Below, piece after piece: positions 7,643 to 56,776 of a DNA stretch of 64,000 bases (within the stretch, counting starts at the first letter, position 1; the number at the start of each line of letters is the position of its first letter). The notes under the pieces were generated by a model. It was not told where the DNA came from, did not search any database, and saw only the letters and a program-made list of their open reading frames with translations. This DNA is from Escherichia phage OliverMaurmann_Bas86: the sequence record PQ850622.1; one strand, given 5' to 3'. Position numbers and translations under genes: made by a program.

Positions 7643-7647
7643 AACTA

Positions 7648-7675
7648 AGGCTGCCTTCGGGTGGCCTTTTCTCAT
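7648..7675 (+). terminator. Rho-independent terminator (UUCG tetraloop hairpin + T-run)
   Basis: AGGCTGCC-TTCG-GGTGGCCT followed by TTTTCTCATTTT, just after the Ig-extension stop. Confidence 0.55.
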
Positions 7676-7742
7676 TTTAAGACCCTTATAAGGAGATATG
7701 TAATGTATTCTCTTTGTCTATACACAACTAGGAGGACAAGTT

Positions 7743-8255
7743 ATGGCAATGCCTGACTTAAAGGGTGTTTTTACTTATAACCAAGACACTGGACACCTCT
7801 TTTGGTCTATGAGTAATGTTTATAATAAGAAGAAAGGACAGAGAGCTGGTTGCATTAATAACAAAGGCTACAGAGTTCTGACCTTTAAAAATAAATCTTA
7901 TTTAGAGCACAGAATCATTGCAGAGTTATTCTTACCTAAAGTGGAAGGAAAGAATCAGATTAATCATAAGAATGGGATTAAGGATGACAACCGCCTAGAA
8001 AACTTAGAATGGTGCACAGGTAGTGAGAACTGCTTACATGCTATTAGTATAGGTCTTAGAGAAGTGAAAAGTTTAGAGGAAAATCCAAACGCTAAACTTT
8101 CTAAAGAGGATGCTCTATTCTGTCTTCAGAACTATAAGCCTAGAAGCCGTCAGTTCGGAGCTAGAGCATTGGGTCGAAGATTTGGAGTATCTAAAAGTAC
8201 AATCAGCCTTCTTGTGAAAGGCGAAAACTGGAAGGAGTTATTATATGATGCCTGA
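7743..8255 (+). CDS. HNH homing endonuclease (HNH_3-type with N-terminal Y..DTG.L.W motif)
   Basis: 170 aa; motifs GYRVLTF...HRIIAELF...INHKNGIKDDNRLENLEW; preceded ~40 nt upstream by TAATGTATT. Confidence 0.8.
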   Translation: MAMPDLKGVFTYNQDTGHLFWSMSNVYNKKKGQRAGCINNKGYRVLTFKNKSYLEHRIIAELFLPKVEGKNQINHKNGIKDDNRLENLEWCTGSENCLHAISIGLREVKSLEENPNAKLSKEDALFCLQNYKPRSRQFGARALGRRFGVSKSTISLLVKGENWKELLYDA

Positions 8256-8997: not shown

Positions 8998-11568
8998 ATG
9001 ATCGTTTATAACAACCAAGCACCAGCTAATCCTAATAATGTTGGTCAGTTTGGTGCTACAGAAGGCTCTATCGGAGCCTATAAACAAGCAGCGGAATATG
9101 CTGCTGATTCTAAATATTGGGCACTTTTAGCAGAATCTAAGTTTGGGACAATTGATGACCTGATTGCACAGGTAGAGCGTCTATACCAACAAGGTGTTTT
9201 ACTCCGAGAAGATATTGAAGATCTGAAGCAGGATTTTGCTGCTCAAGACGTTCGCTTAATGAACCTGATTGCTCAAACAAACGCTGCTGTTGCAGATGCC
9301 AATAACTCAGTTGCACTTATTGATCAAAAGATTGTAGAAGTCCAGAAGCAATTGGATATTCTAATGGATATGAAGGTTACTGTCACTACCCTGCCTCCGG
9401 GTTCTCAAGCTACTGGCTCTTTTGATAACCAAACTGGTGAGATTAAGCTGGGAATTCCTGAGGGTGAAAAAGGTGCAGATGGCTCTGTAACTGACTTATC
9501 AACAGTATCTTCTGGGGTTCCCGAGTTAGGGGATTTAGGTTTTTATGTAGACAAAGATAATAACACTGTACATAAAACCACTCTAGAAAACATTGCTAAC
9601 CTGATTCCTTCTGTTCGCTCTATCTCTGTCAATGGTGGAGAGGCTCAGGATGGTGACGTTGCTTTGGATATTAATAAAACCACAGTGGGTTTAGGTAATG
9701 TTCTTAACGTAGCTCAATACAGTCGTCAAGAGATTAATGATAAGTTTGACAAACCTGTTAAGATTTATCAATCCAAAGCAGAAGCAGATGCAAATGCCCA
9801 ATATCGTCAAGAGGGTGAATCTGTTTTAGTTTGGGAAGATACTCGGTATGTGTTCTACACTGTTGCTGCGAATAAAACCTTAACTCCGGTTAAGTCGGAA
9901 AGTCGTATCTTGACAGTAAACTCAAGATCACCTGACTCTACAGGTAATATTGATATTACAATACCTACAGGGAACCCTTCTCTATATTTGGGTGAAATGG
10001 TAATGTTTCCATATGATCCTAATAAAACTGTATCATACCCCGGTGTGTTACCTGCTGATGGTCGGTTGGTTTCTAAAGAAAACGCCTCTGATTTAGGTCC
10101 ATCTCTTGTCAGTGGACAATTACCAGTAGTTAGCGAGACTGAATGGCAAGCTGGTGCTAAGCAGTATTTCTCTTGGGGTAAATTAGCTGATGGCGTTACT
10201 GATGCGGATTCTACTAACTACATCAATATTCGACTTCCTGATTGGACTGGAGGGGAGGCAATAAGAGCACCAGATTCTGATAAAGATTCTCAGTACAATG
10301 GGGCTGTACAAGCTCAGAAACCTTATGTTGTCACGGTAAATAACCAAACTCCTGATGAGATTACAGGGAACGTAAACCTCTCCAGATCTATCTTAGGAGC
10401 GGCTTCTTCTGGTGCAAACTCCGACATTACATCTTTATCTGGACTCACAACGCCGTTATCCATCTCTCAAGGCGGGACTGGATCTACAACCGTAGACGGG
10501 ATTCGTAATGCTTTAAAAATAACCCCATTTACCAGTGAAAATAATCACGCATTTATCTTCTCACCGAACTTGTTAAACAGGGCTGTGTTGAGGGATGATG
10601 GGTACTTTATCATACAAGAGAGAAGCAGTACCTCATCTGATAGCTGGGAGCCTAATCCGATATCTATAGAAGCGGGTGGTACTGGAGCATCTACAGCCAG
10701 TGAGGCACTTGTTAATCTTGGTTTAGGTCCAACAGCTACTCTCAACGTCATACCGGTTGCCAATGGCGGTACTGGAGCAACTAATGCTGCTGGCGCTCGT
10801 TATAATTTAGGATTGGGGAGCGTTTCTACTCTTGATAATGTACCAATCGCCAGCGGTGGTACAGGTGCTGGGGATGCCGCTGGTGCCCTAGGCAACCTTG
10901 GAGCATTGAGTAACACTCCAGCAAATACAGGTACAGGTGGTACTGGTGCGCGAGTCCAACATGCCGCCGGAAGTGGCCTGTTTACTTTAGACATGTTTAA
11001 CTGCTACTGGTATATGCAGCCAGAGGATACTAACTTCTGGGTTGCCCACGGTGTGTCATATGCAGGAGCTGGTGGCGAAGCCTCAGGTTATGGTCGTATA
11101 TCTTACGCAATAAAGATTGCAGATGGAACAACAAAATATGTCCATTGTCTTACAAACAAAAACACTATTATTGATACAGGCGGGTTTATCAAAGCGGCAT
11201 CTCCGGTAGTTAATATTTATGCCAACGGTCAATATGAAACGAATGATGAATCTGAGGGGGTTAGTGTCATCCGGCAGGGTATTGGTGAATATCTGATTAC
11301 TGGTTGCCTCGGTCTTAACTCTGATGCAAGATGGGGTGGGGTGGATGGTGGGTTTGAAATCCCAACAGATCGCAATAAGCAGCCTAGGATTTGGCTGGAC
11401 TATGAGGTTAAAGAAGATGGTTCTATTTCAGTTAAAACCTATCACAGAACTCACCCAACCTCTCCAGTTTTTGCTAGAAATGAGATAGAAGGTTTTGCTG
11501 ATGGAGACCCTATTGATATTCCAAGTGATGCTTTTATCTCTGTTCGTGTAGAGATGCCATCCAAATAA
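8998..11568 (+). CDS. Tail fiber protein with Gly-rich phage-fiber repeats
   Basis: 856 aa; N-terminal coiled coil; repeated (A/S)xGGTGA..A....NLG(L)G motifs in residues ~470-640. Confidence 0.65.
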   Translation: MIVYNNQAPANPNNVGQFGATEGSIGAYKQAAEYAADSKYWALLAESKFGTIDDLIAQVERLYQQGVLLREDIEDLKQDFAAQDVRLMNLIAQTNAAVADANNSVALIDQKIVEVQKQLDILMDMKVTVTTLPPGSQATGSFDNQTGEIKLGIPEGEKGADGSVTDLSTVSSGVPELGDLGFYVDKDNNTVHKTTLENIANLIPSVRSISVNGGEAQDGDVALDINKTTVGLGNVLNVAQYSRQEINDKFDKPVKIYQSKAEADANAQYRQEGESVLVWEDTRYVFYTVAANKTLTPVKSESRILTVNSRSPDSTGNIDITIPTGNPSLYLGEMVMFPYDPNKTVSYPGVLPADGRLVSKENASDLGPSLVSGQLPVVSETEWQAGAKQYFSWGKLADGVTDADSTNYINIRLPDWTGGEAIRAPDSDKDSQYNGAVQAQKPYVVTVNNQTPDEITGNVNLSRSILGAASSGANSDITSLSGLTTPLSISQGGTGSTTVDGIRNALKITPFTSENNHAFIFSPNLLNRAVLRDDGYFIIQERSSTSSDSWEPNPISIEAGGTGASTASEALVNLGLGPTATLNVIPVANGGTGATNAAGARYNLGLGSVSTLDNVPIASGGTGAGDAAGALGNLGALSNTPANTGTGGTGARVQHAAGSGLFTLDMFNCYWYMQPEDTNFWVAHGVSYAGAGGEASGYGRISYAIKIADGTTKYVHCLTNKNTIIDTGGFIKAASPVVNIYANGQYETNDESEGVSVIRQGIGEYLITGCLGLNSDARWGGVDGGFEIPTDRNKQPRIWLDYEVKEDGSISVKTYHRTHPTSPVFARNEIEGFADGDPIDIPSDAFISVRVEMPSK

Positions 11569-37296: not shown

Positions 37297-37654
37297 TATT
37301 ACTCCCTTTCATAAATTTTGAGAACTGTACCACCATCCGCTTTAATCTGAGCAGCGACTTCATCGCGTTCTTCATTAGAATAAACCAGTTGGTTGTGAAA
37401 TTTTCCTGTAGCATCTTGGAAATATACATTCCATTTTGGAGCAGGTTTACGAATCAAATCCATCATTGATCTTTCTCCTCTCGTTCAACCCATGTATGAA
37501 AAAGCTCCCCATACACTTTGGCATCATCAAAACGTCCTTCTTCCTGTGCGAGTTTTTGTTGCTTCAAGCACCATTCAGAACTTTTTACTTCTTCCACTTC
37601 CTTGTCTCCTTAAAAAGAACTAATCAATAAGACTAGTTCATTTCGTAATACGAT

Positions 37655-37846
37655 TCAGCTCTTCCACGGGAGGTTGATGGTTAAATTCTTAATAGAGAAA
37701 TCTTTATCAGGAAACTCTTCCATTAACTCAGCCGCTTCTTGAATAGCTTTTCTTTCTGTGTTATAGATGCAGAAATGTCCATTACAGCAAACAATTGCAT
37801 CTTTTGCTCCCGTAATGGCCCATGTTTCATGTACATGTCTAGTCAT
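37655..37846 (-). CDS. Hypothetical protein
   Basis: 63 aa ORF immediately upstream of DNA polymerase gene. Confidence 0.4.
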   Translation of the reverse strand: MTRHVHETWAITGAKDAIVCCNGHFCIYNTERKAIQEAAELMEEFPDKDFSIKNLTINLPWKS

Positions 37847-37863
37847 TATTCCTCCACTACAAA

Positions 37864-39708
37864 TTAGTGAGTGTGATTCCAGTTTAACCCAATCTTACAA
37901 TCAGATGCAAGAGGACATTCCATTTTGAGGTATTCACCTGCTTTACGAACACACTCTTCAGTGAGGGTACGAAGTTTGTTAACATCGTCACGATGTACAG
38001 TGAACTGGCCTTCATCATGCATGTCAATAACCTTCGCACAACGAACACCATCACGCTCAATCCATTTATTAAGGAATAGCATTGCATACTTCATAACAAT
38101 CGCCCCAGCGCTCTGTAAGAGAGTGTTTAAGGCTTTATGAACCATAACCTTTCCAGTTGCATCTCTTCTCATTGTAATACGACGTCCATCCACACCGTAG
38201 ATGTATCCACTTTGTGCTTTCTCTGTCATACGTTCAATAAGAATTGCAATACAAGGATTCTCTGCTAAGAATCTTGCCCTCATGACAGCCCCTTCATCAG
38301 AGCCACCACCTACGATGCTTCCTAACTTAGCGTCACCAGCTCCGTAGTTGAATGCATAGATAAACGTTTTAGCATTATCACGAGTAGGAAGGCCAGCAAG
38401 TTTTTGGTTATGTGAGTGAATATCTCCTTCTAAAAGAATATCTCTGTACATAACAGCAGAAGCTAGACCGCGTTCAGCTTCTCGTTTCTTAGCTGGGTTG
38501 TTTTCCTGCTCTGCTTCAGCGAGCATCTCACGACATTCTTTGATAAGGTAATGAGCAAGCATCCTCAGCTCAAGACCAGAGCCATCGTAACCTAAGAAGA
38601 TTTCACGACCAGCAGGTACATAAAATTTATAAGCACCTATTGGTTTGTCTTTCTTGCCCGGTTTTCCCATTTCGTAGATAATGTTAGTACCCTTTCGTAC
38701 GTAACACCCATCAGGGATATGGTTGGTAATGATGAAAGGATGGTTATGACTATCGTCTGAGGAATAGTCAGATTGAAAAAGACTGCGGCACTCGTGACCA
38801 AACAAACCGCGAGAAGGAATATTAACAACAATGCGATGTTTAAAACGAAATGTCGGAGTAGCGCAGCTATTAGCTTCGGCGGACAACTTACCATCTTTAC
38901 GTTCCTTGTCGATAAGCCCGCTAATCAAACCTAGCCTGTGAGCCGCTACAACGCGTCTCTTAAGCAAACTTCCTACACCCCCTAGCTCACCCCCAAGCCC
39001 CTCTTCAAGAGTCTCCTCAAGGTTTGTAGGGGCTGTAGGCCACTTGTTTGATGTAGCCAAAGCTTTTTTGATTTCATCAAAGGTTACAGGCTTCTTCCTA
39101 TTAGGGTTGAGACCTAAACCGCTGACATAGGCTTTCATATAATTGACAGTGTGATAACGGAAGTGCTTATCCAAAAACCTTCGGATATCAGCATCTATCA
39201 TCTCTGCTGTCTGTTTCTCTTTAGCGTTACCTCGAATCCAAGCAGAATACCATGCAGAGTATGTACCATACTTCTTCATAGCTTTACGAATTTCAAAAGT
39301 ATTCCAAGGTTTCTTAGAATAATTCCACTCTGGAGGTATAAAACCTTCATCCATCAAGGCTTCTTTGATACGTGCATCTTTTGATGGGTCAAAGTCTACA
39401 TACTCAACGCAAGTAAACGCCCCACCGATATCTTCTCTTTTAAGACCAACCCTATCACAATAGAGTTGAGGCCACTTCTGCAAAGCACCGGACTTCTTAA
39501 AAGGTTTAGAATAAGTTGAACCATCCACCCGCATTTTGGGGAGGAGAGGAATCAGTTCTTTATCAATATTGACAATAATCTCTTTGAGAAGATGAACAAA
39601 CCACCGAGCGTTTCTTCTGTTGAAGTTGACTCCATGCTTCGCCTGTTTTGAGATTATATCAGCGACTGTCATCTCCGTTATGAAAGGTAACTTATCAGGG
39701 TTATCCAT
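37864..39708 (-). CDS. DNA polymerase, family A
   Basis: Motif A DGSGLELRMLAH, motif B RDNAKTFIYAFNYGAG, motif C MHDEGQF; ATG 39708 with GGAG RBS preferred over the GTG 39711 of the ORF track. Confidence 0.9.
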   Translation of the reverse strand: MDNPDKLPFITEMTVADIISKQAKHGVNFNRRNARWFVHLLKEIIVNIDKELIPLLPKMRVDGSTYSKPFKKSGALQKWPQLYCDRVGLKREDIGGAFTCVEYVDFDPSKDARIKEALMDEGFIPPEWNYSKKPWNTFEIRKAMKKYGTYSAWYSAWIRGNAKEKQTAEMIDADIRRFLDKHFRYHTVNYMKAYVSGLGLNPNRKKPVTFDEIKKALATSNKWPTAPTNLEETLEEGLGGELGGVGSLLKRRVVAAHRLGLISGLIDKERKDGKLSAEANSCATPTFRFKHRIVVNIPSRGLFGHECRSLFQSDYSSDDSHNHPFIITNHIPDGCYVRKGTNIIYEMGKPGKKDKPIGAYKFYVPAGREIFLGYDGSGLELRMLAHYLIKECREMLAEAEQENNPAKKREAERGLASAVMYRDILLEGDIHSHNQKLAGLPTRDNAKTFIYAFNYGAGDAKLGSIVGGGSDEGAVMRARFLAENPCIAILIERMTEKAQSGYIYGVDGRRITMRRDATGKVMVHKALNTLLQSAGAIVMKYAMLFLNKWIERDGVRCAKVIDMHDEGQFTVHRDDVNKLRTLTEECVRKAGEYLKMECPLASDCKIGLNWNHTH

Positions 39709-45007: not shown

Positions 45008-45583
45008 TTAGTAAGACACATCACCACTTGAGTGGGACATGTTGCTCTTGACGAAGTAACAGAACTTGCCAAGACCTTCATTAATTTCTTGAAGCATACT
45101 CTGGTCCACTGGATAGGTGCACAAGTCTGAATCAAACTCATCCATCTTCTCAATGATACACATAAGAGTCATGCACATGTCGGAAAGCATACCGTCCATG
45201 TCGAGATCAGCGTTACCTTCTCGGAACCAAGCATGGCCTAAATAATTACTAGCAGTAGCATCCACTTTAACACAATGAAAGCGCATACGCTCTGCTATTC
45301 GGTCGCCTGCCTCACGAGCATAATCTTCTAGTTCATCGAACATACCATGAACACCTTGGAAACCAGCTCCAGAGACGTTCCAGTGGTAGTTCTTTGCTTT
45401 GATGTGTAGAAGTTCAAGGTTAGCTTGCACACCACACAAGATGTGTTCTAAGCTGTTACCGCTAATCAGTTTATTCATTCCCTCAAGACGAGAGATAGAA
45501 GAGTCAGTAGTAGAGAATGGGTTGCTAGAACCCACTCGTGTTAGTTCTGGTAAGTCGAAGACATTATTATGCATTAGGTGCAT
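45008..45583 (-). CDS. Dps/ferritin-like protein
   Basis: 191 aa; KNYHWNVSGAGFQGVHGMFDELEDYAREAGDRIAERM matches the Dps ferroxidase-region pattern. Confidence 0.5.
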   Translation of the reverse strand: MHLMHNNVFDLPELTRVGSSNPFSTTDSSISRLEGMNKLISGNSLEHILCGVQANLELLHIKAKNYHWNVSGAGFQGVHGMFDELEDYAREAGDRIAERMRFHCVKVDATASNYLGHAWFREGNADLDMDGMLSDMCMTLMCIIEKMDEFDSDLCTYPVDQSMLQEINEGLGKFCYFVKSNMSHSSGDVSY

Positions 45584-46388: not shown

Positions 46389-46922
46389 TTATACGCCTTT
46401 AGAAGCAACAACCCCATCAGAGTTATTGTAACGACCCTTCACTGCATAGGAATCATCACCAGCGTGAGAGTGTTCAAACATAACCATTTGACCAACACGC
46501 ATCCCAGCACGAACTCGTAAGCTGTGATTGTGGGTAACGTTATGGAACTCAAAGGTTAGCTTACTGCTGTTAAACCCTGCATCAGCCCACCCAGCATGTA
46601 AGTGGTTCAAACCACAACGAGCCATTGAGGAGCGAAGTACAAACAGACTTGAGATGTTATCTGGAAGGTTAAACTCTTCCATTGAGTGCGCTAAGAAGAA
46701 TTGTCCCGGAGTGATGACAATACCATCTTCAGGGATTTTCACCTCTTTCCACTTGAGGTTTTCTTTAGCATCAATGTCAACAATGCCGTCAGCCTGTTCT
46801 TCAACAAGGATAGTATCACCAATACGGATATCCACACTAGCAGCGTTAACATATTTATGCTCCGCATCTAAAAAGCCATTATCAATAACACTGTGTAATT
46901 CTTGAGAACCTAAAAGACTCAT
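46389..46922 (-). CDS. dcd: dCTP deaminase family protein
   Basis: 177 aa; AGWADAGFNSSKLTFEFHN resembles the Dcd/dUTPase-fold GW.D.GF.G....E motif. Confidence 0.75.
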   Translation of the reverse strand: MSLLGSQELHSVIDNGFLDAEHKYVNAASVDIRIGDTILVEEQADGIVDIDAKENLKWKEVKIPEDGIVITPGQFFLAHSMEEFNLPDNISSLFVLRSSMARCGLNHLHAGWADAGFNSSKLTFEFHNVTHNHSLRVRAGMRVGQMVMFEHSHAGDDSYAVKGRYNNSDGVVASKGV

Positions 46923-48367
46923 GAGTTTCTGTTTCCTTGTACAGATGATGCCAAATTGTTAATCATGTTACGAGCTGTTTCACGAGTCAGCGTAACACCT
47001 GCTAAGTTACTATCAAGTTCACCAACTAATTCACGAGCTGTTGCTCGGAGTTCTGCACCAAGTGTAGTGTTAGAATGAGCCAGACCATTACGACGACCGA
47101 CAGGTCGAGGAGTATTGTTAGCATCATTAGCTAAAGATGCAAAACCAATACGAGCAGCTTCACGAGCGGCTATAGCTGCTACCCGATCTTCCGTAGGGGT
47201 TGGCAAATCACCAACTTCTACACGTTCTATATCACTAGAACGTAGACCCTGAACAACAGAGCTAACTGTTTCCCATGAACGACGGGAGCGCTGCAAATCA
47301 CCCATAGATGGAGAAGAAGCAGGTCGAACAGTTACTCCACCTGTATCATGAGTGACGTGCCATGTACGAGTACCCATTCCAGAAGAACGGGCACTACCAA
47401 AACTACCAGTGAAAGTATCACGAGGTGCCTCTGTAGCAGGTGCTGCGAATCTTGTCTGTTGCCAAGAGTCACGTCTGTCAGTTCCCGGAGTCCAAGGCTG
47501 CGTAATTGCTTCAGCACCTATAGTGGTTAATCCGCTAGACCATTCTGTCTGTAGATTAACTTCCTCGTCCAGATAACTACGACCCCTTTCCTGAGGAATG
47601 TTTAATATAGTTTCCATCATCTTCAGGGTATAATGATGACGCTGATTCTGATATAAATTTACACCAGCCATAGGTCCAACTAAATCACTAATCAGGTGAA
47701 CTTCTGGCTCACCGAAAGCTCCCATTGCAAGGTGCATGTATTCAGTAGAACTGCTATAAACTGCAACAGTTGCTTCAGGCCACTTCTTGTGAACATACTT
47801 CATTTCACGACTAGATACCACAGGAATGTCACGAGTGTATGACATTGCAAACAAACCTTCGTTTGACACATACAGATTACCAAGAGTCATAAACCCTTGA
47901 CAGATCATAGGAAAGCGACGGCTTAAAGTATCCATATCCAAAGGTAGATTAATCATCATCTGGATTTTAACTTGATCAATCTCAATTTCCAGAATCTCTT
48001 GGAAAGTGAAAAGCGCTTCAGCATAGGTTGTCCCGTTAACAGGCTGAATTAGTCGAGATGTAACCTGAAGCCCCTTACTTTCTGTCCAAGATAAGAAGTT
48101 GTCAAGGAATAGTGCAGCATTACCTACGTTAGCAGGGCTGTTTTCTTGACGAGTGTTCCAACGAAGCCCTCCTTGAACTAGGAAGATATCAACATCATTC
48201 GGAGTTCTATTTTGAAAGAACGTATCACGGATAGCACCACCTGCAATAACAGGATAGATGCCATCAGGGACTACGTTATCTCTGATCAAATTACGAATCA
48301 GGTCAAGCCCTACACTGAGGGCTTCTCCTTCTTGAAGGTTCAATTCAGATAGTGGAATCTTAATCAT
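46919..48367 (-). CDS. Pol-beta superfamily nucleotidyltransferase (CCA-adding/poly(A) polymerase-like head motif) with Arg/Ser/Thr-rich C-terminal tail
   Basis: 482 aa; VIAGGAIRDTFFQNRTPNDVDIF matches the GG.(V/I)RD...D.D motif; last ~200 aa low-complexity. Confidence 0.55.
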   Translation of the reverse strand: MIKIPLSELNLQEGEALSVGLDLIRNLIRDNVVPDGIYPVIAGGAIRDTFFQNRTPNDVDIFLVQGGLRWNTRQENSPANVGNAALFLDNFLSWTESKGLQVTSRLIQPVNGTTYAEALFTFQEILEIEIDQVKIQMMINLPLDMDTLSRRFPMICQGFMTLGNLYVSNEGLFAMSYTRDIPVVSSREMKYVHKKWPEATVAVYSSSTEYMHLAMGAFGEPEVHLISDLVGPMAGVNLYQNQRHHYTLKMMETILNIPQERGRSYLDEEVNLQTEWSSGLTTIGAEAITQPWTPGTDRRDSWQQTRFAAPATEAPRDTFTGSFGSARSSGMGTRTWHVTHDTGGVTVRPASSPSMGDLQRSRRSWETVSSVVQGLRSSDIERVEVGDLPTPTEDRVAAIAAREAARIGFASLANDANNTPRPVGRRNGLAHSNTTLGAELRATARELVGELDSNLAGVTLTRETARNMINNLASSVQGNRNS

Positions 48368-48369
48368 TT

Positions 48370-48918
48370 CTACATTTTCCAGTTGAGAGATGGGGGATTC
48401 TTATAATCAAATCCAGCCATTTGGCAAAGACACATGTAAACCTTAACTGTCAAGTTAACGTCTTGTTCACAATACGTGAACATGTCTTCAGTGAAAGCAT
48501 CCCATGCTTCTTCCTGTTCACCATAGTCACCCTTCAGCTCTCCCAGAAATTCGCCCCATTGCTTGAGGCCATGACCGCGAGGTCCGTGTCTAGGGTCGCC
48601 TTTGGGATATTCTGGACTGTCACCAATACGGTCAGGCTTGAGGTATCGACTCAGGCACAGGGTATCAAAGACATTAAAACGAAAAGGTATCACATGAGAG
48701 TAGAATTTAAACAAAGCAGGAAGGTCAAAATCAATAATATTGTGACCTATTACTACATCAGCTTCTTTCAGTTTGTGTAGTGCTTCTTCAATTTGGTGAG
48801 GGCGATACCCCCACCGTTCTCCAGACAGTACATCAAATATCCATATACACCAGACATTCTGAATACCATCATAGAGGTTATCACCTTCAATATCAAACGC
48901 ATACAGTTTCTTTACCAC
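48370..48918 (-). CDS. DnaQ-like 3'-5' exonuclease (stand-alone)
   Basis: 182 aa; Exo I FDIEGDN, Exo II HNIIDFD, Exo III YCEQDV; GTG start with AAGGGGAGG RBS. Confidence 0.75.
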
Positions 48919-50702
48919 GGACGTGCCTCCCCTTCTTGTGAAAGTAAGGAAGCTGCATCTTCTCCGTTGGTGACTGTAAACGGATTATCTTCATCAACTT
49001 CATGATCTTCTCGTTCCACAAGACGACCTGTTTCGTTAATGTATTTGGTATAGCAAACCCCTGTCTGTCCATAGTTACGCTCTTTGAGCAGACGTATGAT
49101 TGACAAGTTTTTACCTAACCCATCCGCTTGTTTATTACGTTCGAAACCGATAATACATTGACACCAGCGCATTAATGAACGTGAGCCAGTAAACTGTACT
49201 TCTTTAACCTGACCACCTTCTTCGTGAGGGGCACCGCCCGCCGGAGCATTCAAGTGAGATAACACAAAAGCAGTGAAGTCTAATTCCTTACACATACCAG
49301 CAAGCTCTGAAGCAATCTTACTGATTTCTGTATTCACTTCGGATGGAGTTAAGTGAGATACCAATGCAGTGATGTTATCAAGAATGATAAATTTACACTG
49401 ATTCTCAACTACCCAAAAGCGAATACACTGCTTAATGTCTTCCCATTCGTTCTGCCCAAAGTTGTCATACAAGAAAAACTTATCAGCGTATCGAAGTGCT
49501 TCATCTCGTAGCTGGCTTTCTTCGTACTCAACATCTGGTCGGTGGAAAGGTACAGATGCTGACTTACCTGCAATGTTCTTAACAGACATGCCTACCTTCT
49601 CTTCCAAGAAGAAGCCACCACCATTAAAACCATGCTCAAGGCAAAGCCATGCTACCAGTTCGTGTGCGATTAAGGTTTTACCTGAACCAACACCACCGCC
49701 GATTGCAACCATCTCTCCCCAACGAATACCGAAAGTCATGTCGTTAAGAGTTTTCCACGGATAAGGGATACCCCACTCCGCTTTCTTCAGAGCATCTTCA
49801 AGGCAATCAAAAACTGTAACAGCGCCGGCAGGAGATTCCCGCTTAGCTGAATATTTCAGATTGTTGAAAAGCTCTTGACCTCTCCCTGCAAGTAACATGT
49901 CGTTTGCATCTTTGATTTCCTTTTCTTGTCCGTTATAAGTGAACGTACCTTTTGGAATTCTTGCAAACTTGACATGTGGGTACAGAGAACGACCTTTAGT
50001 CAATGCAATCTCTCCTGCATCATCATTGTCCATGCAGAGTACAATCTCCTCGAAACCATTAATAAAATCACGATTTCTTGACAACACAGAAGAGATTGAA
50101 CCTGCACCGAACGGAAGAGAGACACAAGCAGGTTTGATATTAGTTGCGTTTGTGAACGCAGTAAGTACGTGGAATCCAGACATACAAGAGAGTGGGTCTT
50201 CGAAGATGAAGAGCTTCTTATTGTAAACATCGCCACGTTGTGCTTGAGCCATACCAAATAAGTCGGCTTCTTTCACATTACCTACATAATAGAACTTCTT
50301 GCTGTCTAGAAGTTTTACTTCATATCCAACAATATTCCCATCACGTTCACGAGGGAAGAAGTAGCTGTCAGGAGTTTGACCGTCTGTTTGACTTAAACCA
50401 ATACGGCATCCATAACGTTCAGATACAGCTTTAGGAATTAAGCGACGAGTCAATTCTCCCTGAGGAAGCTCTAAGCAATCGTCTAAGACTTCTCGGAGTT
50501 CTTCAGGGGACAGCTCTTTCTTTTCATTAGGGGTGGGCGTCGTTCCTTTCTCGAAGATTTCATACGCACCACATCTGTTACATGAACCCCACTCCTCACC
50601 GGACTCTTCATTTCGGAAGAGAATCATGTGATTGCGGGTCTTATCACGACCATGAGAGATACACTCTTTACAGCCCGTGTCTCCCAAAATGATCTTTGAC
50701 AT
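48912..50702 (-). CDS. Primase-helicase (zinc-finger + TOPRIM primase + DnaB-like helicase)
   Basis: 596 aa; N-terminal Cys4 finger, C-terminal Walker [10 protein letters not shown]; GGAGG RBS. Confidence 0.9.
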
Positions 50703-50737: not shown

Positions 50738-50944
50738 TTAGTAAAACGATCGTATTTCTTCCCACACATCATCTTGCAAGTTTCTAAAACCCTGCAAGGT
50801 TTGCTTTGTTCTGTGAATAAATTCTTCAGAGTGCTTATCAGGTGTGAGCATACTGACAAACTTTTCATAGCGATTAATCTTCCACCGCATCTTCAAGTAG
50901 TCAGATTCCAGCTTTCTTAACTTCTGCCTGTCAGTTACTGTCAT
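50738..50944 (-). CDS. Hypothetical small protein
   Basis: Start refined to the internal ATG (MTVTDRQ...) just after the upstream stop. Confidence 0.3.
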   Translation of the reverse strand: MTVTDRQKLRKLESDYLKMRWKINRYEKFVSMLTPDKHSEEFIHRTKQTLQGFRNLQDDVWEEIRSFY

Positions 50945-51362
50945 CCTTCTCACCTGCCAGATATGCTGTCCAGTCACCAGATTCAACCAGAACATCTTGT
51001 TCTTCGTCGATGTGATAAATCCACGCTTCCACAGTTTCACCGCTGTCCAATAATACTGGAATCAGCGTACGCTTATAAAAGGTGTATGGGTTATCATTGC
51101 CACGGTGACCTTCCAGACCGTCATATGGGCCTTCCAGACCAGCTTGGGTTGTTTCAAAGACTTCTACACGAACAGGCTTACCATTGCTGTCATGCTCCAA
51201 AGATACACTTGGGAAGTATGCTGTGCAATACTGATACAGGTTACAGTTGTTTACTGTCCACCCTTCACCAATAGACACACCACCTGCACGAGCATTGATA
51301 GCATGGTTGTGTTGACCTTTTCTCAAGCTTCCGTAAGTTGCAACTAGTACTTTATCAGACAT
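50931..51362 (-). CDS. Gamma-glutamyl cyclotransferase-like (AIG2/GGCT fold) protein
   Basis: 143 aa; N-terminal VATYGSLRKG (YGSL hallmark) and later acidic residues. Confidence 0.65.
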   Translation of the reverse strand: MSDKVLVATYGSLRKGQHNHAINARAGGVSIGEGWTVNNCNLYQYCTAYFPSVSLEHDSNGKPVRVEVFETTQAGLEGPYDGLEGHRGNDNPYTFYKRTLIPVLLDSGETVEAWIYHIDEEQDVLVESGDWTAYLAGEKDDSN

Positions 51363-51428
51363 TATATTACCTTTTAGTGTTTCAGTTAAATTCGAACTAG
51401 CCTCCTCTTTCGAAGAGGCTAAAGCAAA

Positions 51429-51614
51429 TTATTCTACTTCGAAGTGTTTGATCACACCAGTCAACACATCAGATTGGAATGTACCCACTAGCTCTGTACC
51501 TCGGAAGAAGTTAACACTTGTTCCAAGTGATTCAAAGCGATCTGCTTGAATGTCCAGAGATTGAATATTTCCTTCTGCTGACATTGTACGAAACATGATT
51601 GTGTATTTATTCAC
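51429..51614 (-). CDS. Hypothetical small protein
   Basis: 61 aa ORF. Confidence 0.3.
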   Translation of the reverse strand: MNKYTIMFRTMSAEGNIQSLDIQADRFESLGTSVNFFRGTELVGTFQSDVLTGVIKHFEVE

Positions 51615-51853
51615 AGACTTGTTACTCCCTTATCTGCTTGTGCAATTGCGATGATACGCTCAGCACATTCCATTGAATATTTATCACCTCGTTTGAGGAA
51701 GGTGATGATTGCAGAGAACTGATTACCAATCATTCTCTTATTTGTGATACCGAACTCTTCACAGAGTTGGTTGATAGCTTTACGAGAGCCTACAATCAGA
51801 GGCTCTTTTTCTTCGGTCATTCCACGGCTGATCAAATCTTCGATAGACAACAT
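51611..51853 (-). CDS. Hypothetical protein
   Basis: 80 aa ORF. Confidence 0.4.
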   Translation of the reverse strand: MLSIEDLISRGMTEEKEPLIVGSRKAINQLCEEFGITNKRMIGNQFSAIITFLKRGDKYSMECAERIIAIAQADKGVTSL

Positions 51854-51879
51854 TACAAATTCCTTTTTGTTTAATTTAA

Positions 51880-53115
51880 TTACAGAGTTACTGCTACTTC
51901 GCTACCTTCAACATTGACAGACTCTAACTTGCGAGGGTTATGAATCTGTACCGGATTAACCGGAACGTTCCAACCACTACGGTAGAAGTTACGACCATCA
52001 CAGAACAAAATGACATTGGCAGACATTGCATTCGGTTGCAGGTTGTTATGGACATGACGGATATCTGCAATCCAATAACCACGAGACAAAGTGTAACCAG
52101 TAGGTGCATTACGAATAGTTTGAGTATTCATCTGACCTTCCAGTTGCATCTCTTCAGGAACTACATCTACCGAATCAACTGGCTGTGCTACCTGATCTTC
52201 CAGTGCAAAGTTTTCATCATTAGCGCTTTCGCTGTCATCTACCAACTCACCGTCTCCATCTTCAATCGGAGTCTGGTAAACCACTTTATACTGAGGAGTA
52301 TAGAGAGGGTTCTGAGCTTTAACAAACTCAAGGATGTTATGGCGGTAGGTATCCAGAGTTGTACCAGTCAGGCCCGGTGCTGTATTAACTTCCAGTACCC
52401 ACGCTTCTTGACCTTTGGTGATAATATCAACTGCACCGAAATCCAGACCCATTGATTCAACAGCTTTCACCGCATTGATCAGAGAGGCGTCATTCGGAGC
52501 ATCTGTGAAGGAGCTTGAGTAAACCCAGCCAGTGTGGTGATTACGAATATCTTCACGATAGTTAGGGTCTTCGCGATAACCATTGCGACGAATCTTCTTC
52601 TGAACATAGGTGATTACACCTTTGAACACATGAACACGCCACTCACGACGTGGGCCTTGAATGCCTTTAGTGTACAGTTCAGCTCGACCAAGACCATCAC
52701 CCGGTTCTACAACAACAATACCCGAACCAGAGTGACCAGTCAGCTCATGGCGCTCATACACAATATTACCAGTGTTTGACCACTCCTGAGCAGTCTCTTG
52801 AACATCTGTGTATTCCACAGTTTTAACACCTGCTTGGTCCATCACACTGAAAGCACGACGTTTGTTCGCTGCCATATATAAGGCTGCGGTACGGTTAAGG
52901 ACGGTTGCAGAACCAAAGAATGATTCAGGATAGCGACGGTTCCCGTAGTTAACAACCACATCACCTTCACGAGAACGCCAGCGGCTATTCTCTGAAAGAA
53001 GACCCATCACGTTAGCATTGATGCGTTCATCACGGATAGTATCACTGATAGCAGATACTAGAGCGTTAACAGAATCAGACGGGCCATACGGAAGAACACG
53101 GATACGAGTAGTCAT
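51880..53115 (-). CDS. ATP-grasp enzyme (RimK-like ligase) with extra C-terminal domain
   Basis: 411 aa; ELTGHSGSGIVVV, EWRVHVFKG, WVLEVNTAPGL; acidic linker then ~120-aa C-terminal region. Confidence 0.85.
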   Translation of the reverse strand: MTTRIRVLPYGPSDSVNALVSAISDTIRDERINANVMGLLSENSRWRSREGDVVVNYGNRRYPESFFGSATVLNRTAALYMAANKRRAFSVMDQAGVKTVEYTDVQETAQEWSNTGNIVYERHELTGHSGSGIVVVEPGDGLGRAELYTKGIQGPRREWRVHVFKGVITYVQKKIRRNGYREDPNYREDIRNHHTGWVYSSSFTDAPNDASLINAVKAVESMGLDFGAVDIITKGQEAWVLEVNTAPGLTGTTLDTYRHNILEFVKAQNPLYTPQYKVVYQTPIEDGDGELVDDSESANDENFALEDQVAQPVDSVDVVPEEMQLEGQMNTQTIRNAPTGYTLSRGYWIADIRHVHNNLQPNAMSANVILFCDGRNFYRSGWNVPVNPVQIHNPRKLESVNVEGSEVAVTL

Positions 53116-53117
53116 TT

Positions 53118-53348
53118 TTAGATACCTTTTAGTTTAAGAATTTCGTTACGACAGGATTGAATTTTAGCTTCGATTGCCCAATACTCAGCGAACATTTCGT
53201 CTTCTTGGGCATCGCTTGGAGAGTCAATTAAGTTAAAAGCAAACGGATACAGCTTTCGCTGCTCCGTTACCAGTTGTTGAAGTCGGAGTTGTTGATACTC
53301 CAGCATTGTCAGGTGAGGCTTAGCTCCCTTGCTTGACATGAGGCTCAA
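53118..53348 (-). CDS. Hypothetical small protein
   Basis: 76 aa ORF. Confidence 0.35.
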   Translation of the reverse strand: MSLMSSKGAKPHLTMLEYQQLRLQQLVTEQRKLYPFAFNLIDSPSDAQEDEMFAEYWAIEAKIQSCRNEILKLKGI

Positions 53349-53553
53349 CTTTAATCCCCTTCATTTTAACATAGTCAGCCAACACGTTATTGATAACGGT
53401 TGGAAAAGGGATTTCTACTGGAGAGTCAACCAGCTTCCCAATACCTTCTTGCATCCACTTCTGGATTGCTCGGAGGTTATCACATCCTGTGCTTGTCATC
53501 GGAATACGGCGGGTAGTTACCACGTTATCCAACATCAGTTTACGAACTTCCAT
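53320..53553 (-). CDS. Hypothetical small protein
   Basis: 77 aa ORF. Confidence 0.35.
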   Translation of the reverse strand: MEVRKLMLDNVVTTRRIPMTSTGCDNLRAIQKWMQEGIGKLVDSPVEIPFPTVINNVLADYVKMKGIKVEPHVKQGS

Positions 53554-53564
53554 AACTATACCTC

Positions 53565-55598
53565 TTAGTGTTTACCTTTACAGTAATCTGAATTACAGAT
53601 CACCCTGTTTTCTTTGTTCAGTGAGCAAGTTTCTGCATCACGCCACGGAATTTGTTTATAACAGACTGCACAAAACCCAATTGAAGTCCAGAGGGCTTTT
53701 GTAAACTCAGCTGTTCGTTGTCCATCGTAACTGACAACTGTTTTTCGGAGAGAGGTTGACTTTTCTGGAAATGTCTCCGCTTTCTCAGCGGGTACCTCCT
53801 TTGGGGCATTCTTTGGACCATAAACAGAGATGGCATAAGTATCACCACCACGTTTTTCCAAATACGAATTAGGAACATCTGCAAGTGTGATGTCCCCTGA
53901 ACGTTTTGCTGAGCTGACCATTACAATCATACGGCTAAGCATACGTTCATCAACACGAACAGCTACTTCAGGACGACGTGGGTTGGTTGTGTCTACTGCT
54001 TTAGTCCAAATATAACCTTCAGATAGAGTAACATTCTTTACTTTATCTTTGATTTCTTTGGAGCAGATATAACAAACGTCTTCACCACGAAGTTTACTCA
54101 TTTCGTTGTCAAACTCGAAATCAGTCTTGACTTCACCACAGATAGCACATACACCCAAAGGCACATCTTCTTCCTCTTCAGAGGTTTTAGATAACGCTTC
54201 GAAGCATTCTGGATGCCAGTATGCCTGATAAGCAAACACAGCCTTACGAGCATCTTTCCAGTCAATGTGCTTATCACAACCACCACAGTCACCATGAGAG
54301 TGAGATTCCCAGAACTTACGAGTGACTTCTACACCATTCTTAGTGATGAAGGAGTCCTCTGCATCAAAAGGGATATCATCATCAAAATCAGCAGTAGTGC
54401 TTTGAGGCTCCTTATCTGTAGCATCAACAAACAGCCCTGAAGTTAGTACGAGGCGAATCATACTGTCCACTTCGGAGATACAAGCGATTGTCCCGCGATA
54501 TACTACCTTTGGGTTTTCAAGAGCCTTAAGATATTCATCTTTGGCTACGTTGTGAACATCCCCTTCGACATACTCTTGGGCTTTATCATCGTAGATGTAA
54601 CCAACCATCTTACCACGATCTGTGTTGTTATAAGCATGGAACTCGTGAGGAGTAATATCCACACGACCATCACGACGATAAGGAAGACCACGATCGGCAG
54701 CCAGTTTGTTCTGGTCTTCAATCGCTTTACGACGACGAATGTCTCCGCTTGTCACGCCGGGCTTGTCGTCTTTGTTTCCGTAAATGTCGCTTGTGCTGCT
54801 GCTTGGTTTGTTTGTCTGTTGGTTCTGATAAAGAGAGGAGTTCGAGTAATAGCCGCCCCAGCGACTCGTTACCGTAAAAACCGGAAGCTTGTGCTCCACC
54901 TCTTGAACCAGAGTCATACGACTGTTAGACACATCAAAGATATACTCAGTTCCCACTTTACACTCGAAGTGGTCATTGATACGGTTCTTGTGGGATTTAG
55001 AACGCTCTAAAATCCACATAAGCATAGCTTCTTCAGAAGCCCCAAACCAATCCAAACCACAGCGGGCTAGGTGGAAAGGACGCTCATCATTACGGATAAT
55101 GTGAAGCGTGTTGTCTTTAGCATCATGCCAAATCAAAGTGAATGCACCATCCAGTTTTTGGATAGTCTCTGCTGCTCCAATGGTGTTAATTGAGTGGCAG
55201 ATGTTTTCACTATCAACTTCGAAACGCTTACTGTCAGGAAGGAGATCTTGATCTAACAGGGTTCCATTATGAACCAGAGTAATATCCCCGTGAGTAAATG
55301 GGTGAGCATTTCGAGCATTGACAGCCCCACGAGTGGCATGTCGGCTGTGACCAACAATCCACGAAGGAGGAACTACGTAGTTCGTAAGCCCTTTGGTAAT
55401 ATTTGTATATTCTGTCTGGAGCATAAAAGCATAAGAAGGAAGAGCTTCTTTATAAGAGAAGACTTGCTTTTCACCTTTACGCTGACCAAACACACCAGTT
55501 GAGTGCTGTCCACGGAAAACACCAGCATACAGAAGTTGGTTGAAAATGTCCAAATCTGCTGAGGTCATGTTGCCGCCAGCTAATACGATACCACAAAT
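53565..55598 (-). CDS. Class-II (Ntn-type) glutamine amidotransferase domain protein with Cys-rich C-terminal region; predicted ATT start
   Basis: IVGHSRHATRGAVNARNAHPF resembles the GlmS-type motif. Frame is open 10 codons upstream of the ATG, encoding (start)-CGIVLAGGN; ATT at 55598-55596 sits 7 nt after AGGTGGA. Confidence 0.75.
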   Translation of the reverse strand: MCGIVLAGGNMTSADLDIFNQLLYAGVFRGQHSTGVFGQRKGEKQVFSYKEALPSYAFMLQTEYTNITKGLTNYVVPPSWIVGHSRHATRGAVNARNAHPFTHGDITLVHNGTLLDQDLLPDSKRFEVDSENICHSINTIGAAETIQKLDGAFTLIWHDAKDNTLHIIRNDERPFHLARCGLDWFGASEEAMLMWILERSKSHKNRINDHFECKVGTEYIFDVSNSRMTLVQEVEHKLPVFTVTSRWGGYYSNSSLYQNQQTNKPSSSTSDIYGNKDDKPGVTSGDIRRRKAIEDQNKLAADRGLPYRRDGRVDITPHEFHAYNNTDRGKMVGYIYDDKAQEYVEGDVHNVAKDEYLKALENPKVVYRGTIACISEVDSMIRLVLTSGLFVDATDKEPQSTTADFDDDIPFDAEDSFITKNGVEVTRKFWESHSHGDCGGCDKHIDWKDARKAVFAYQAYWHPECFEALSKTSEEEEDVPLGVCAICGEVKTDFEFDNEMSKLRGEDVCYICSKEIKDKVKNVTLSEGYIWTKAVDTTNPRRPEVAVRVDERMLSRMIVMVSSAKRSGDITLADVPNSYLEKRGGDTYAISVYGPKNAPKEVPAEKAETFPEKSTSLRKTVVSYDGQRTAEFTKALWTSIGFCAVCYKQIPWRDAETCSLNKENRVICNSDYCKGKH

Positions 55599-55675
55599 TT
55601 TCTAATCCACCTGAAGGGTAAACCCTTTCATCTAATTAACCTTTAAATGCGCCCTGTATAAGAGCGCCCGTTGTG

Positions 55676-56776
55676 TTACAGCAGTCGTTCTAATTGCATT
55701 TCCAGAAGGTCTGGAATATAACCAGTGACGTTATCATCACTGCTACCTGATTCACGCATCAATGCAAACATGTGACGAATTTCACGAACCGTTGCGATTC
55801 GAGTGCTTTCAATCTGAGGGGTGTAGTAGGTCATGATCTCTTCGTAGACACTGTTGGCATTACCGCGCACATATCCCAAGAAACCATAGAAGTCATTCAT
55901 ATCACGTAAGTTGATAAGGACTTCACCATCAGGGCCAGTCTGTTGCACACGAACACGACCAACCAAAGTCACAGATTGCTCACGACAGAAGAGAATATCA
56001 CGAGCAAGACGATACCCTTCAGTGAGATCACTGTCTCTTGGAGTATAGTCTAGGGGTAGATGTTGAATCATAGGAGCGAAGCGCAGCTCATTCAACTTCT
56101 CAACATAAGCTTCATTGTCTAAATCTGCATATTCAACAGCCAGTTTCTTGAGAACCAAGAAGCGGTTGACCAGATTCAGAAGTTGGCTCTTTTTCCACTT
56201 CGGCTCTGAGATACGGAACTCAACAGAACCAAATTGAGATAGAGGCAAAAGATTAAGGGAGGTATATTTATCCCAGCTATTAACAAGAGAGTGGAAGAAA
56301 GCTTCCCCGTCTCGGTTGAACGCTGACGAAGCATTCATAACTTGTGCTTGAACGACAGCAAAAGCTGGACAGAAGTTGCTACGATAGCGATGGTATCCAG
56401 AACATTTGAACATCATCTTTTCATAGAACGTCCATCCAAGAATAACTTTCTTAAGGATGTTACTATCAGCGTCACGCATATCCATATGAACATGAGTGGA
56501 GCAGCGCCAAGTTCCCTCGGCTCCAGAATCCTGTACTGCTTCACTCAGATTGTTAATAGCACGAAGTAATTCTTCACCGTTGTAAGGTCGTGCACATACT
56601 AATTCACAACCATCACGAAGAGAGCCATCTTCAGTACAAACCCACATATCAGCGTCAATGTCAGTTGTACCTTCGACTTCTAACTCAATACCAACACCAC
56701 ACTGAAAAGCAATACTTGGATGCGGTTCAGATAAGCGAGGGTTACGGTATCCAAAAACTTGTGCTACGGTTGTCAT
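55676..56776 (-). CDS. Glutamine synthetase-like amidoligase (carboxylate-amine ligase)
   Basis: 366 aa; GIELEVEG, STHVHMDM, GSVEFRISEP. Confidence 0.55.
   Translation of the reverse strand: MTTVAQVFGYRNPRLSEPHPSIAFQCGVGIELEVEGTTDIDADMWVCTEDGSLRDGCELVCARPYNGEELLRAINNLSEAVQDSGAEGTWRCSTHVHMDMRDADSNILKKVILGWTFYEKMMFKCSGYHRYRSNFCPAFAVVQAQVMNASSAFNRDGEAFFHSLVNSWDKYTSLNLLPLSQFGSVEFRISEPKWKKSQLLNLVNRFLVLKKLAVEYADLDNEAYVEKLNELRFAPMIQHLPLDYTPRDSDLTEGYRLARDILFCREQSVTLVGRVRVQQTGPDGEVLINLRDMNDFYGFLGYVRGNANSVYEEIMTYYTPQIESTRIATVREIRHMFALMRESGSSDDNVTGYIPDLLEMQLERLL

Follow-up and report, generated by a model that had tools for sequence, protein, structure and literature searches.

The gene and its domain organization

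The nucleotidyltransferase (NTase) considered here is encoded by Escherichia phage OliverMaurmann_Bas86 (PQ850622.1), within a 64,000-nucleotide stretch referred to below as the window, where an ATG-start open reading frame (ORF) of 482 aa occupies exactly positions 46919-48367 on the minus strand. The region is 99.5% identical to Escherichia phage AnnaHegner_Bas87, a podophage of the C3 morphotype and the subfamily Gordonclarkvirinae whose close relatives are placed in the genus Suseptimavirus, and the counterpart gene in that phage, Bas87_0069, bears the annotation 'nucleotidyltransferase'. Along its whole length the protein matches the profile phrog_12715 (E 6.9e-169, residues 1-475 against positions 1-456 of the 457 in the profile), and its C-terminal tail is therefore part of a conserved phage protein. 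The basic finding is already known, since existing annotation calls the gene product a nucleotidyltransferase and gives it a class II CCA-type domain; new here are the exclusion of CCA addition, a controlled link to the anti-Gabija protein Gad2, a probable Asp-Asp-Gln active site and a set of tail properties that hold across the family. The coding sequence is organized as follows.

46919-48367, minus strand: complete coding sequence, 482 aa plus stop; ortholog of Bas87_0069, phrog_12715.
47933-48367, minus strand: residues 1-145, N-terminal strand/helix and alpha/beta class II-type Pol-beta nucleotidyltransferase head.
48182-48241, minus strand: residues 43-62, motif A, GGAIRD-x9-DVDIF, with metal-binding D58 and D60 (from family invariance and alignment to solved class II enzymes).
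47939-48004, minus strand: residues 122-143, beta-hairpin with D/E124, I125 and Q136 (from column counts and bridging sequences).
47723-47932, minus strand: residues 146-215, degenerate motif B element, beta-hairpin and remodelled first neck helix 'IPVVSSREMKYVHKKWP' (from hhalign and conservation).
47516-47722, minus strand: residues 216-284, family-specific helical end of the globular part with a W-S-x-G-L-T motif (from the AlphaFold model and alignment).
46922-47515, minus strand: residues 285-482, Arg/Ser/Thr/Ala/Gly-rich, Lys-free tail, predicted to be disordered with a few short predicted helices.

The class II-type head

Motif A of the NTase combines GGAIRD (residues 43-48) with NDVDIF (residues 57-62). 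Seven of its residues (G43, G44, R47, D48, D58, D60 and F62) are invariant in 26 of 26 diverse family representatives, and the motif was seen in every family member, with E. coli Cca and PcnB as positive controls. With the family profile it can be matched position by position to motif A of solved class II CCA-adding enzymes ('IaGGaVRDvlfknrephDiDI' vs 'IVGGAVRDLLLGKTPHDVDV', E 0.004), and CCA-adding enzymes, aligned exactly at motif A, are the only near-significant sequence matches of this profile in the PDB. Single-sequence and shallow-profile searches of Pfam, NCBIfam and PDB sequences gave nothing useful; the window protein has no match to Pfam PF01743 (PolyA_pol head) at E<=1, short of the gathering threshold, and Kuravirus orthologs score 19-22 bits against it, just below the cut-off of 23.

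An AlphaFold model of residues 1-286, built from a 31-sequence family alignment, has a mean predicted local distance difference test score (pLDDT) of 85.4 and a predicted template modelling score of 0.85, while a full-length model from a shallow two-clade alignment reached a pLDDT of 41 and was unusable. Foldseek comparison with the PDB returns nearly exclusively class II CCA-, CC- and A-adding enzymes together with 3aqk/3aql/3aqm (E 4e-5 to 1e-3), and the NTase model has the class II head-domain fold. Residues 1 to about 215 consist of a class II head and one remodelled neck helix, in which the nucleoside triphosphate (NTP)- and Mg-binding GGxxRD and DxD elements are kept. The preliminary description, made from the letters of the DNA, had taken GGAIRD...NDVDIF for a class II signature and the N-terminal part for a CCA-adding/poly(A)-polymerase-type head. 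The first point is borne out by the presence, invariance and alignment of the motif, and the structural call was right because the Foldseek results, the PDB matches of the family profile and the near-threshold PolyA_pol scores of the Kuravirus orthologs all agree with it. Its further remark that no neck, body or HD domain is obvious holds for the body, tail and HD domains, which are absent, but has to be amended for the neck, of which one helix is retained.

Beyond the head, the resemblance to class II enzymes falls away. None of the 26 representatives has motif B (RRDFTxN), which recognizes ribose, motif C or the EDxxR residues of motif D, with Cca and PcnB again as positive controls; no HD domain is present in the NTase, and only about 140-170 of its 286 globular residues superpose on class II structures. 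The residues that confer CCA or A specificity and tRNA specificity have been lost. Residues 146-482, the middle region and tail together, have no Pfam or PDB family match. Comparison of the family profile with a class II set of 82 sequences (80 Cca plus Cca and PcnB) by hhalign gives a probability of 37.8% (E 3.4e-4, 88 columns). The register of such alignments beyond motif A, obtained first with two and then with 82 class II sequences, had marginal scores and laid a confident helix on class II strands, and it was not used.

Relationship to Gad2

Gad2 is a 400-aa protein of Bacillus phage SPbetaL7 whose knockout makes this phage susceptible to Gabija, and a Brevibacillus homolog supplied in trans abolishes Gabija defence (bioRxiv 10.1101/2023.05.01.538930). 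Its nucleotidyltransferase domain was recognized by AlphaFold prediction, and an enzymatic mechanism has been proposed for it, unlike that of Gad1, which binds the Gabija complex (bioRxiv 10.1101/2023.05.01.538930). A review of February 2026 still gives the mechanism of Gad2 as unknown and counts Gabija among systems that sense DNA ends (PMC12904381).

The Pfam family precomputed on most Kuravirus orthologs of the NTase, PF26128, is Gad2. A Gad2 profile was built from the SPbetaL7 protein (OQ921347.1, 109563-110765) and eight diverse homologs. In hhalign it matches the NTase family with 85.5% probability (E 5.7e-6, 127 columns), collinearly over residues 35-197, at a score of 44.2 against a column-shuffled null of 12.4±2.1 (maximum 19.3); the reversed control gave 3.4% probability. 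Gad2 itself aligns with class II at 81.4% (E 1.2e-5, 172 columns). As a hidden Markov model (HMM) searched against a 266-sequence decoy set, the Gad2 profile matches 26 of 26 family representatives (7.6e-6 to 0.11), ranking them above class II and above every window ORF but the NTase itself, and the family HMM in turn places Gad2 homologs (best 4.8e-7) above class II (best 0.079). The two groups are bridged by P0095, a 311-aa protein (7001-7936 of a metagenomic contig) that is matched by both the Gad2 and the window-family HMMs (3.7e-7 and 2e-8); its phage-like contig carries ClpP, PhoH and a family B DNA polymerase and does not have the Gordonclarkvirinae-type operon. A Gad2 match in the 79-kb Escherichia phage 18-1-2 was considered as a Gordonclarkvirinae paralog and ruled out, that sequence being a partial Vequintavirinae genome.

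The hairpin, motif B element and neck helix

In the hairpin at residues 122-143, position 124 is always acidic (D/E), and I125 and Q136 are invariant by column counts, the latter being Gln in 26 of 26 family representatives and also in eight of nine Gad2 homologs. The matching hairpin position is Glu in P0095, which in addition retains a motif B remnant ('LRDFDIGLC'), Asp in ORF16 of Pseudomonas phage LKD16, and Glu in PcnB (E119 of 'IIEVATF' as translated here). From the register of the hairpin, in a region where profile alignments are unreliable, Q136 can be inferred to lie at the canonical third-carboxylate site. Assignment of that role to D/E124 was dropped, as strand-face reasoning and the bridging sequences favour position 136; D/E124 and D/E188, both invariably acidic, could instead serve as compensating metal ligands. 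An Asp-Asp-Gln active-site variant common to two phage NTase families is probable, and the conserved Gln held in common with Gad2 suggests a chemistry unlike standard two-metal primer extension.

The succeeding elements are also remodelled. The degenerate motif B element reads 'RRFPMIC' and has the general form 'x-F-P-x-x-C' with an invariant P153; the corresponding segments are 'FPMIC' in the window protein, 'FDFTVC' in Gad2 and 'RRDFTINA' in class II. The Gln-bearing strand is 'KIQMMI' in the window protein and 'KLQMI' in Gad2. The first neck helix, in which R187, D/E188, Y191 and K195 are conserved, reads 'PVVSSREMKY' in the window protein, 'PIVSLLRVQKY' in Gad2 and 'EDPLRVLRVARF' in class II; through the Gad2 alignment, the templating Glu-Asp is seen to be deleted and the Arg replaced by Ser. 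Residues 216-284 are modelled with pLDDT 64-91, and the conserved W-S-x-G-L-T motif closes the globular part.

The predicted disordered C-terminal tail

The tail had been described beforehand as roughly 200 aa rich in Arg, Ser, Thr and Ala, a composition that is confirmed over the last 198 residues (A 12.1, R 11.6, T 11.1, S 10.1 and G 8.6%, 53% in sum). These residues include no Lys, Cys or Tyr, their hydrophobic content is 20.7% vs 38.7% in the head, and their net charge is near zero (23 R vs 21 D+E). Residues 285-482 have pLDDT below 50 in the full-length AlphaFold model with its shallow alignment and are predicted to be disordered. No DNA tandem repeat was found, and internal protein repeats were not significant (score 32 vs a null of 31±5).

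In a codon alignment of nine Suseptimavirus orthologs, the ratio of nonsynonymous to synonymous substitution rates (dN/dS) is 0.07 for residues 1-150 and 0.11 for residues 151-284, while three successive tail segments have values of 0.42, 0.30 and 0.20. Indels among these orthologs are all in frame and lie within the tail, no alternative open frame runs across it, and within the genus its last ~25 residues do not vary. Among the early gene products seen by mass spectrometry is the Kuravirus ortholog SU10 CDS74 (50.9 kDa), represented by one peptide (PMC4281155). The tail is thus no annotation artefact but evolves under purifying, though relaxed, selection: the dN/dS values, in-frame indels, invariant end and SU10 peptide mark it as translated, selected and fast-evolving.

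Between genera the tail is essentially unalignable, and tblastn stops at residue 283, but its character persists, with 0-2 Lys but as many as 26 Arg, and with small or polar residues making up 45-55%, across the family; the tail alone matches phrog_12715 at E 6.6e-31. A short linear motif common to all tails is unsupported, as only two of 28 cross-clade pairs exceed composition-matched shuffles (the window protein with P0070, z 5.4; P0071 with P0072, z 3.3). The tail stretch 'EDRVAAIAAREAAR' was considered as a motif D and judged coincidental, being out of register and tolerating a 4-residue deletion in one ortholog. Many short-tailed members, though not the window protein, end in an aromatic motif (...REVW, ...RWQW, ...GGWTF, ...TWDW, ...RRFNF, ...RSEW, ...EYDF). 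These endings are reminiscent of the aromatic docking peptides at the C-termini of SSB, T7 gp2.5 and T7 gp4.

Family distribution and genomic context

The family is small. When 1.84 billion cluster representatives were searched exhaustively by HMMER, a profile of the globular region recovered only 33 proteins at E<=1e-3, with no canonical class II enzyme among them, and a word-indexed homolog search found only close relatives. Many of the family relatives are 275-320 aa long and have short tails.

The NTase is a fixed member of a phage replisome operon. The gene order primase/helicase, PolA 3'-5' exonuclease subunit, NTase and dCTP deaminase is kept in Bas87, in SU10 and in metagenomic relatives at about 23% identity, and no minus-strand terminator-like site lies between the operon genes. 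The neighbours of the NTase gene are the following.

48912-50702, minus strand: T7 gp4-like DNA primase/helicase, first gene of the block, overlapping the exonuclease gene.
48370-48918, minus strand: DNA polymerase A 3'-5' exonuclease subunit, upstream; its stop lies 2 nt before the NTase ATG.
46389-46922, minus strand: dCTP deaminase, downstream; its start overlaps the NTase stop (TCATGA).

Several further features of the surroundings may be recorded. The family A DNA polymerase is split, with the 182-aa stand-alone 3'-5' exonuclease (48370-48918, minus strand) beside the primase/helicase and the polymerase gene (about 37307-39151, minus strand) some 9 kb downstream of it, about 25 small genes lying between. 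Directly upstream of the replisome operon, at about 50931-56776 (minus strand), a cluster of orthologs of Bas87_0073 to Bas87_0080 carries annotations as gamma-glutamyl cyclotransferase, RimK-like ATP-grasp protein ('ribosomal protein S6 glutaminyl transferase'), class II glutamine amidotransferase (as GlmS) and amidoligase; it looks like a peptide- or amide-bond-forming system and is conserved in SU10 and a distant metagenomic relative. At 45008-45583 (minus strand) lies a 191-aa 'DNA binding protein' with a ferritin-like (Dps-type) domain (PF00210, E 7e-8), found at the same position in distant relatives.

Proposed function and alternative explanations

The NTase is tentatively regarded as a Gad2-type enzyme that transfers a nucleotide to the ends of phage DNA, to replication intermediates or to a host sensor and thereby blunts end- or nucleotide-sensing defences such as Gabija; a probability of roughly 0.35 is assigned to this reading. 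Early in infection, the enzyme would take an NTP or deoxynucleoside triphosphate through motif A and move the nucleotide onto an acceptor made by phage DNA replication, most likely the 3' ends of phage DNA or of replication intermediates, with a host sensor protein as the alternative acceptor. End-sensing or nucleotide-sensing host nucleases such as Gabija would then remain untriggered or be blocked. The Arg-rich, Lys-free disordered tail, standing in place of the missing body and tail domains, may flexibly tether the enzyme to nucleic acid or to a partner from the replisome or the host; co-evolution with that partner might underlie the tail's rapid divergence. A further proposal, that Gad2-type NTases, this one among them, are native replisome accessory enzymes which chemically cap or extend the 3' ends of phage DNA or its replication intermediates through the unusual Asp-Asp-Gln site and so hide it from Gabija and perhaps other systems, is quite unlikely; if true, it would provide a mechanism for Gad2 and help to explain the broad restriction resistance of Gordonclarkvirinae.

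A number of points weigh against a Gad2-type function. Because the precomputed PF26128 matches are weak on Kuravirus orthologs and lacking for the window-type protein, the relationship to Gad2 is, as far as sequence comparison goes, one of remote homology and not of membership, and the Gad2 profile behind it comprises nine sequences only. Such homology transfers a phenotype but not a mechanism. The Gln at the inferred third-carboxylate site, together with the Pro that replaces the motif B Asp, might signify a transferase of little or no activity, and nearly all members have an acidic catalytic core (pI 4.5-5.1), an unusual feature in an enzyme acting on nucleic acid. The C-terminal half of Gad2 is Lys/Asp/Glu-rich (24 K, 4 R) and looks folded, whereas the NTase tail is Arg-rich, Lys-free and disordered. 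Gabija lies outside the BASEL defence panel, and literature searches returned no functional study of the NTase family or of the small podophage NTases. Finally, anti-defence genes are usually variable accessory genes, whereas the strict conservation and synteny of the NTase point to a housekeeping role in replication or nucleotide metabolism.

Such a housekeeping enzyme of replication or the nucleotide pool, possibly a DNA-modifying one acting with the dCTP deaminase and the replisome, is an unlikely alternative. It would fit the strict synteny and the translational coupling with the PolA exonuclease and dCTP deaminase genes, and a modifying activity would explain the resistance of Gordonclarkvirinae to restriction-modification (RM) systems. 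The authors of the BASEL collection report remarkable RM resistance in these phages in the absence of a known modification and point to the NTase locus (PMC11990801). Across window positions 1-64000, CCWGG (Dcm/EcoRII) occurs 0 times vs ~103 expected (z -12.5), GATC 126 vs 286, PstI 0 vs 22 and BamHI 1 vs 11, and all 6-bp palindromes together 603 vs 950 (z -12.8), while sites for EcoRI (14), EcoRV (21), EcoKI (8) and EcoP1 (AGACC, 102) are near their expected counts. Site avoidance is therefore selective and offers no explanation for the reported resistance to EcoRI, EcoRV, EcoKI and EcoP1. Nevertheless, no DNA modification pathway with a class II-type NTase is known to us, none of the present results ties the NTase to modification, and no modification has been reported for Gordonclarkvirinae phages; the phage-encoded ThyX speaks against the suggested deoxyuridine-containing DNA, and many uncharacterised early genes could instead encode restriction inhibitors.

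It is unlikely that the NTase is an NTP-binding pseudo-enzyme or scaffold, that is, a nucleotide-sensing or structural replisome subunit that has kept nucleotide binding but lost efficient catalysis and uses its tail as an interaction hub. The invariance of Q136 where bridging relatives carry Glu or Asp, the degenerate motif B with its invariant P153, the acidic core, the operon coupling to replisome subunits and the partner-like disordered tail would all suit such a protein. However, the third-carboxylate assignment comes from hairpin register, and D/E124 or D/E188 could supply the ligand; Gln is present in eight of nine Gad2 homologs, and SPbetaL7 Gad2, with its 'KLQMI', is biologically active. 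In addition, pseudo-NTases usually lose the DxD, which is invariant in the window family.

RNA 3'-end tailing or tRNA CCA repair, the roles put forward in the preliminary description, would have the NTase mend defence-damaged tRNAs or polyadenylate host RNA for decay, with the Arg-rich tail as an RNA-binding module, as is thought for the basic C-terminus of E. coli poly(A) polymerase I (PAP I). This explanation is decidedly unlikely. No member has motif B, motif C or the templating residues of motif D, and a body and tail for binding tRNA are lacking; the net charge of the tail is near zero, and the gene belongs to a DNA-replication operon. No tRNA was found inside the window, and the single phage tRNA, Arg(TCT) (Bas87 64904-64976, about 300 nt beyond the window end), has its 3'-CCA encoded in the genome. 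RNA ligase or polynucleotide kinase-phosphatase genes that might act as partners are not annotated near the NTase, and E. coli has its own Cca. The first interpretation is thus partly supported, in that the class II-type NTase head stands and tRNA CCA addition falls, and readers of the database label 'class II CCA-adding enzyme domain' should not take it to mean tRNA CCA addition.

Least likely is AMPylation or UMPylation by a protein nucleotidylyltransferase, either of a host protein (such as GajA/GajB or another defence or repair factor) or of Ser/Thr residues in its own tail, in the manner of MntA-type NTases against HEPN toxins: the loss of nucleic-acid-specific motifs with retention of NTP-binding residues, the acidic core ill suited to nucleic acid, the Ser/Thr-rich tail and the enzymatic mechanism suggested for Gad2 as opposed to Gad1 (bioRxiv 10.1101/2023.05.01.538930) favour it, but only the general fold is common to MNT/GlnE-type protein NTases, no target is known, and models of defence-system NTases do not match the protein.

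Through remote homology, Gad2, a validated anti-Gabija protein, is linked to a replisome-operon gene that is conserved and syntenic in a common group of E. coli phages. The BASEL phages on E. coli K-12 offer a genetically tractable system for the role of a Gad2-like enzyme and for the restriction resistance of Gordonclarkvirinae without known modification.

Comparison with known systems

Class II CCA-adding enzymes and PAP I (PF01743; 3AQL, 1MIV, 4WBY) differ from the NTase in possessing the RRD motif B, motif C and the EDxxR templating residues, as well as the remainder of the neck and the body, tail and HD domains. The NTase falls below the Pfam threshold of that family, has Gln instead of Glu at the inferred third-carboxylate site, and is located in a DNA-replication operon.

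Gad2 and the NTase are alike in being phage-encoded proteins with an N-terminal class II-derived NTase core of ~200 aa and a variable C-terminal half. In both, the second strand of the hairpin bears a Gln, motif B is remodelled ('FDFTxC' in Gad2, 'FPxxC' in the NTase) and the neck helix lacks the templating Glu-Asp and Arg. Gad2, however, has 'GGAITS' where the NTase family keeps the class II 'GGAxRD', and it retains the motif B Asp-Phe-Thr where the family has its invariant Pro. Gad2 is located in a variable anti-defence locus, whereas the place of the NTase in the replisome operon is the same throughout the subfamily and in distant relatives from metagenomes. Several Gad2 homologs, like the NTase, are nevertheless found among replication or recombination genes, namely flanked by a nuclease and SSB in S. 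thermophilus phages, flanked in a Sulfitobacter phage by a repair protein and an exonuclease, and beside a DNA ligase in DLP_6.

Small podophage NTases (phrog_1614-like) form a third point of comparison. Structural searches of BFVD with the NTase return many stand-alone 'PolyA-polymerase head' podophage proteins of 165-230 aa, at template modelling scores of 0.5-0.6 normalised to the target. The match extends over nearly the whole of the small protein and includes the same motif A, to which sequence similarity is confined; unlike the NTase, these proteins have neither an extended C-terminal subdomain nor a long tail. In phage LKD16, the head-only ORF16 (9703-10302, 199 aa, motif GGAARD...PRDIDL) is annotated as a hypothetical protein without a Pfam match and overlaps the end of the DNA helicase gene. 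In this one genome checked, the order of helicase, NTase, ligase and DNA polymerase places it inside a T7-type replisome module. Class II-derived minimal NTases within phage DNA replication and recombination modules thus look like a recurring theme.

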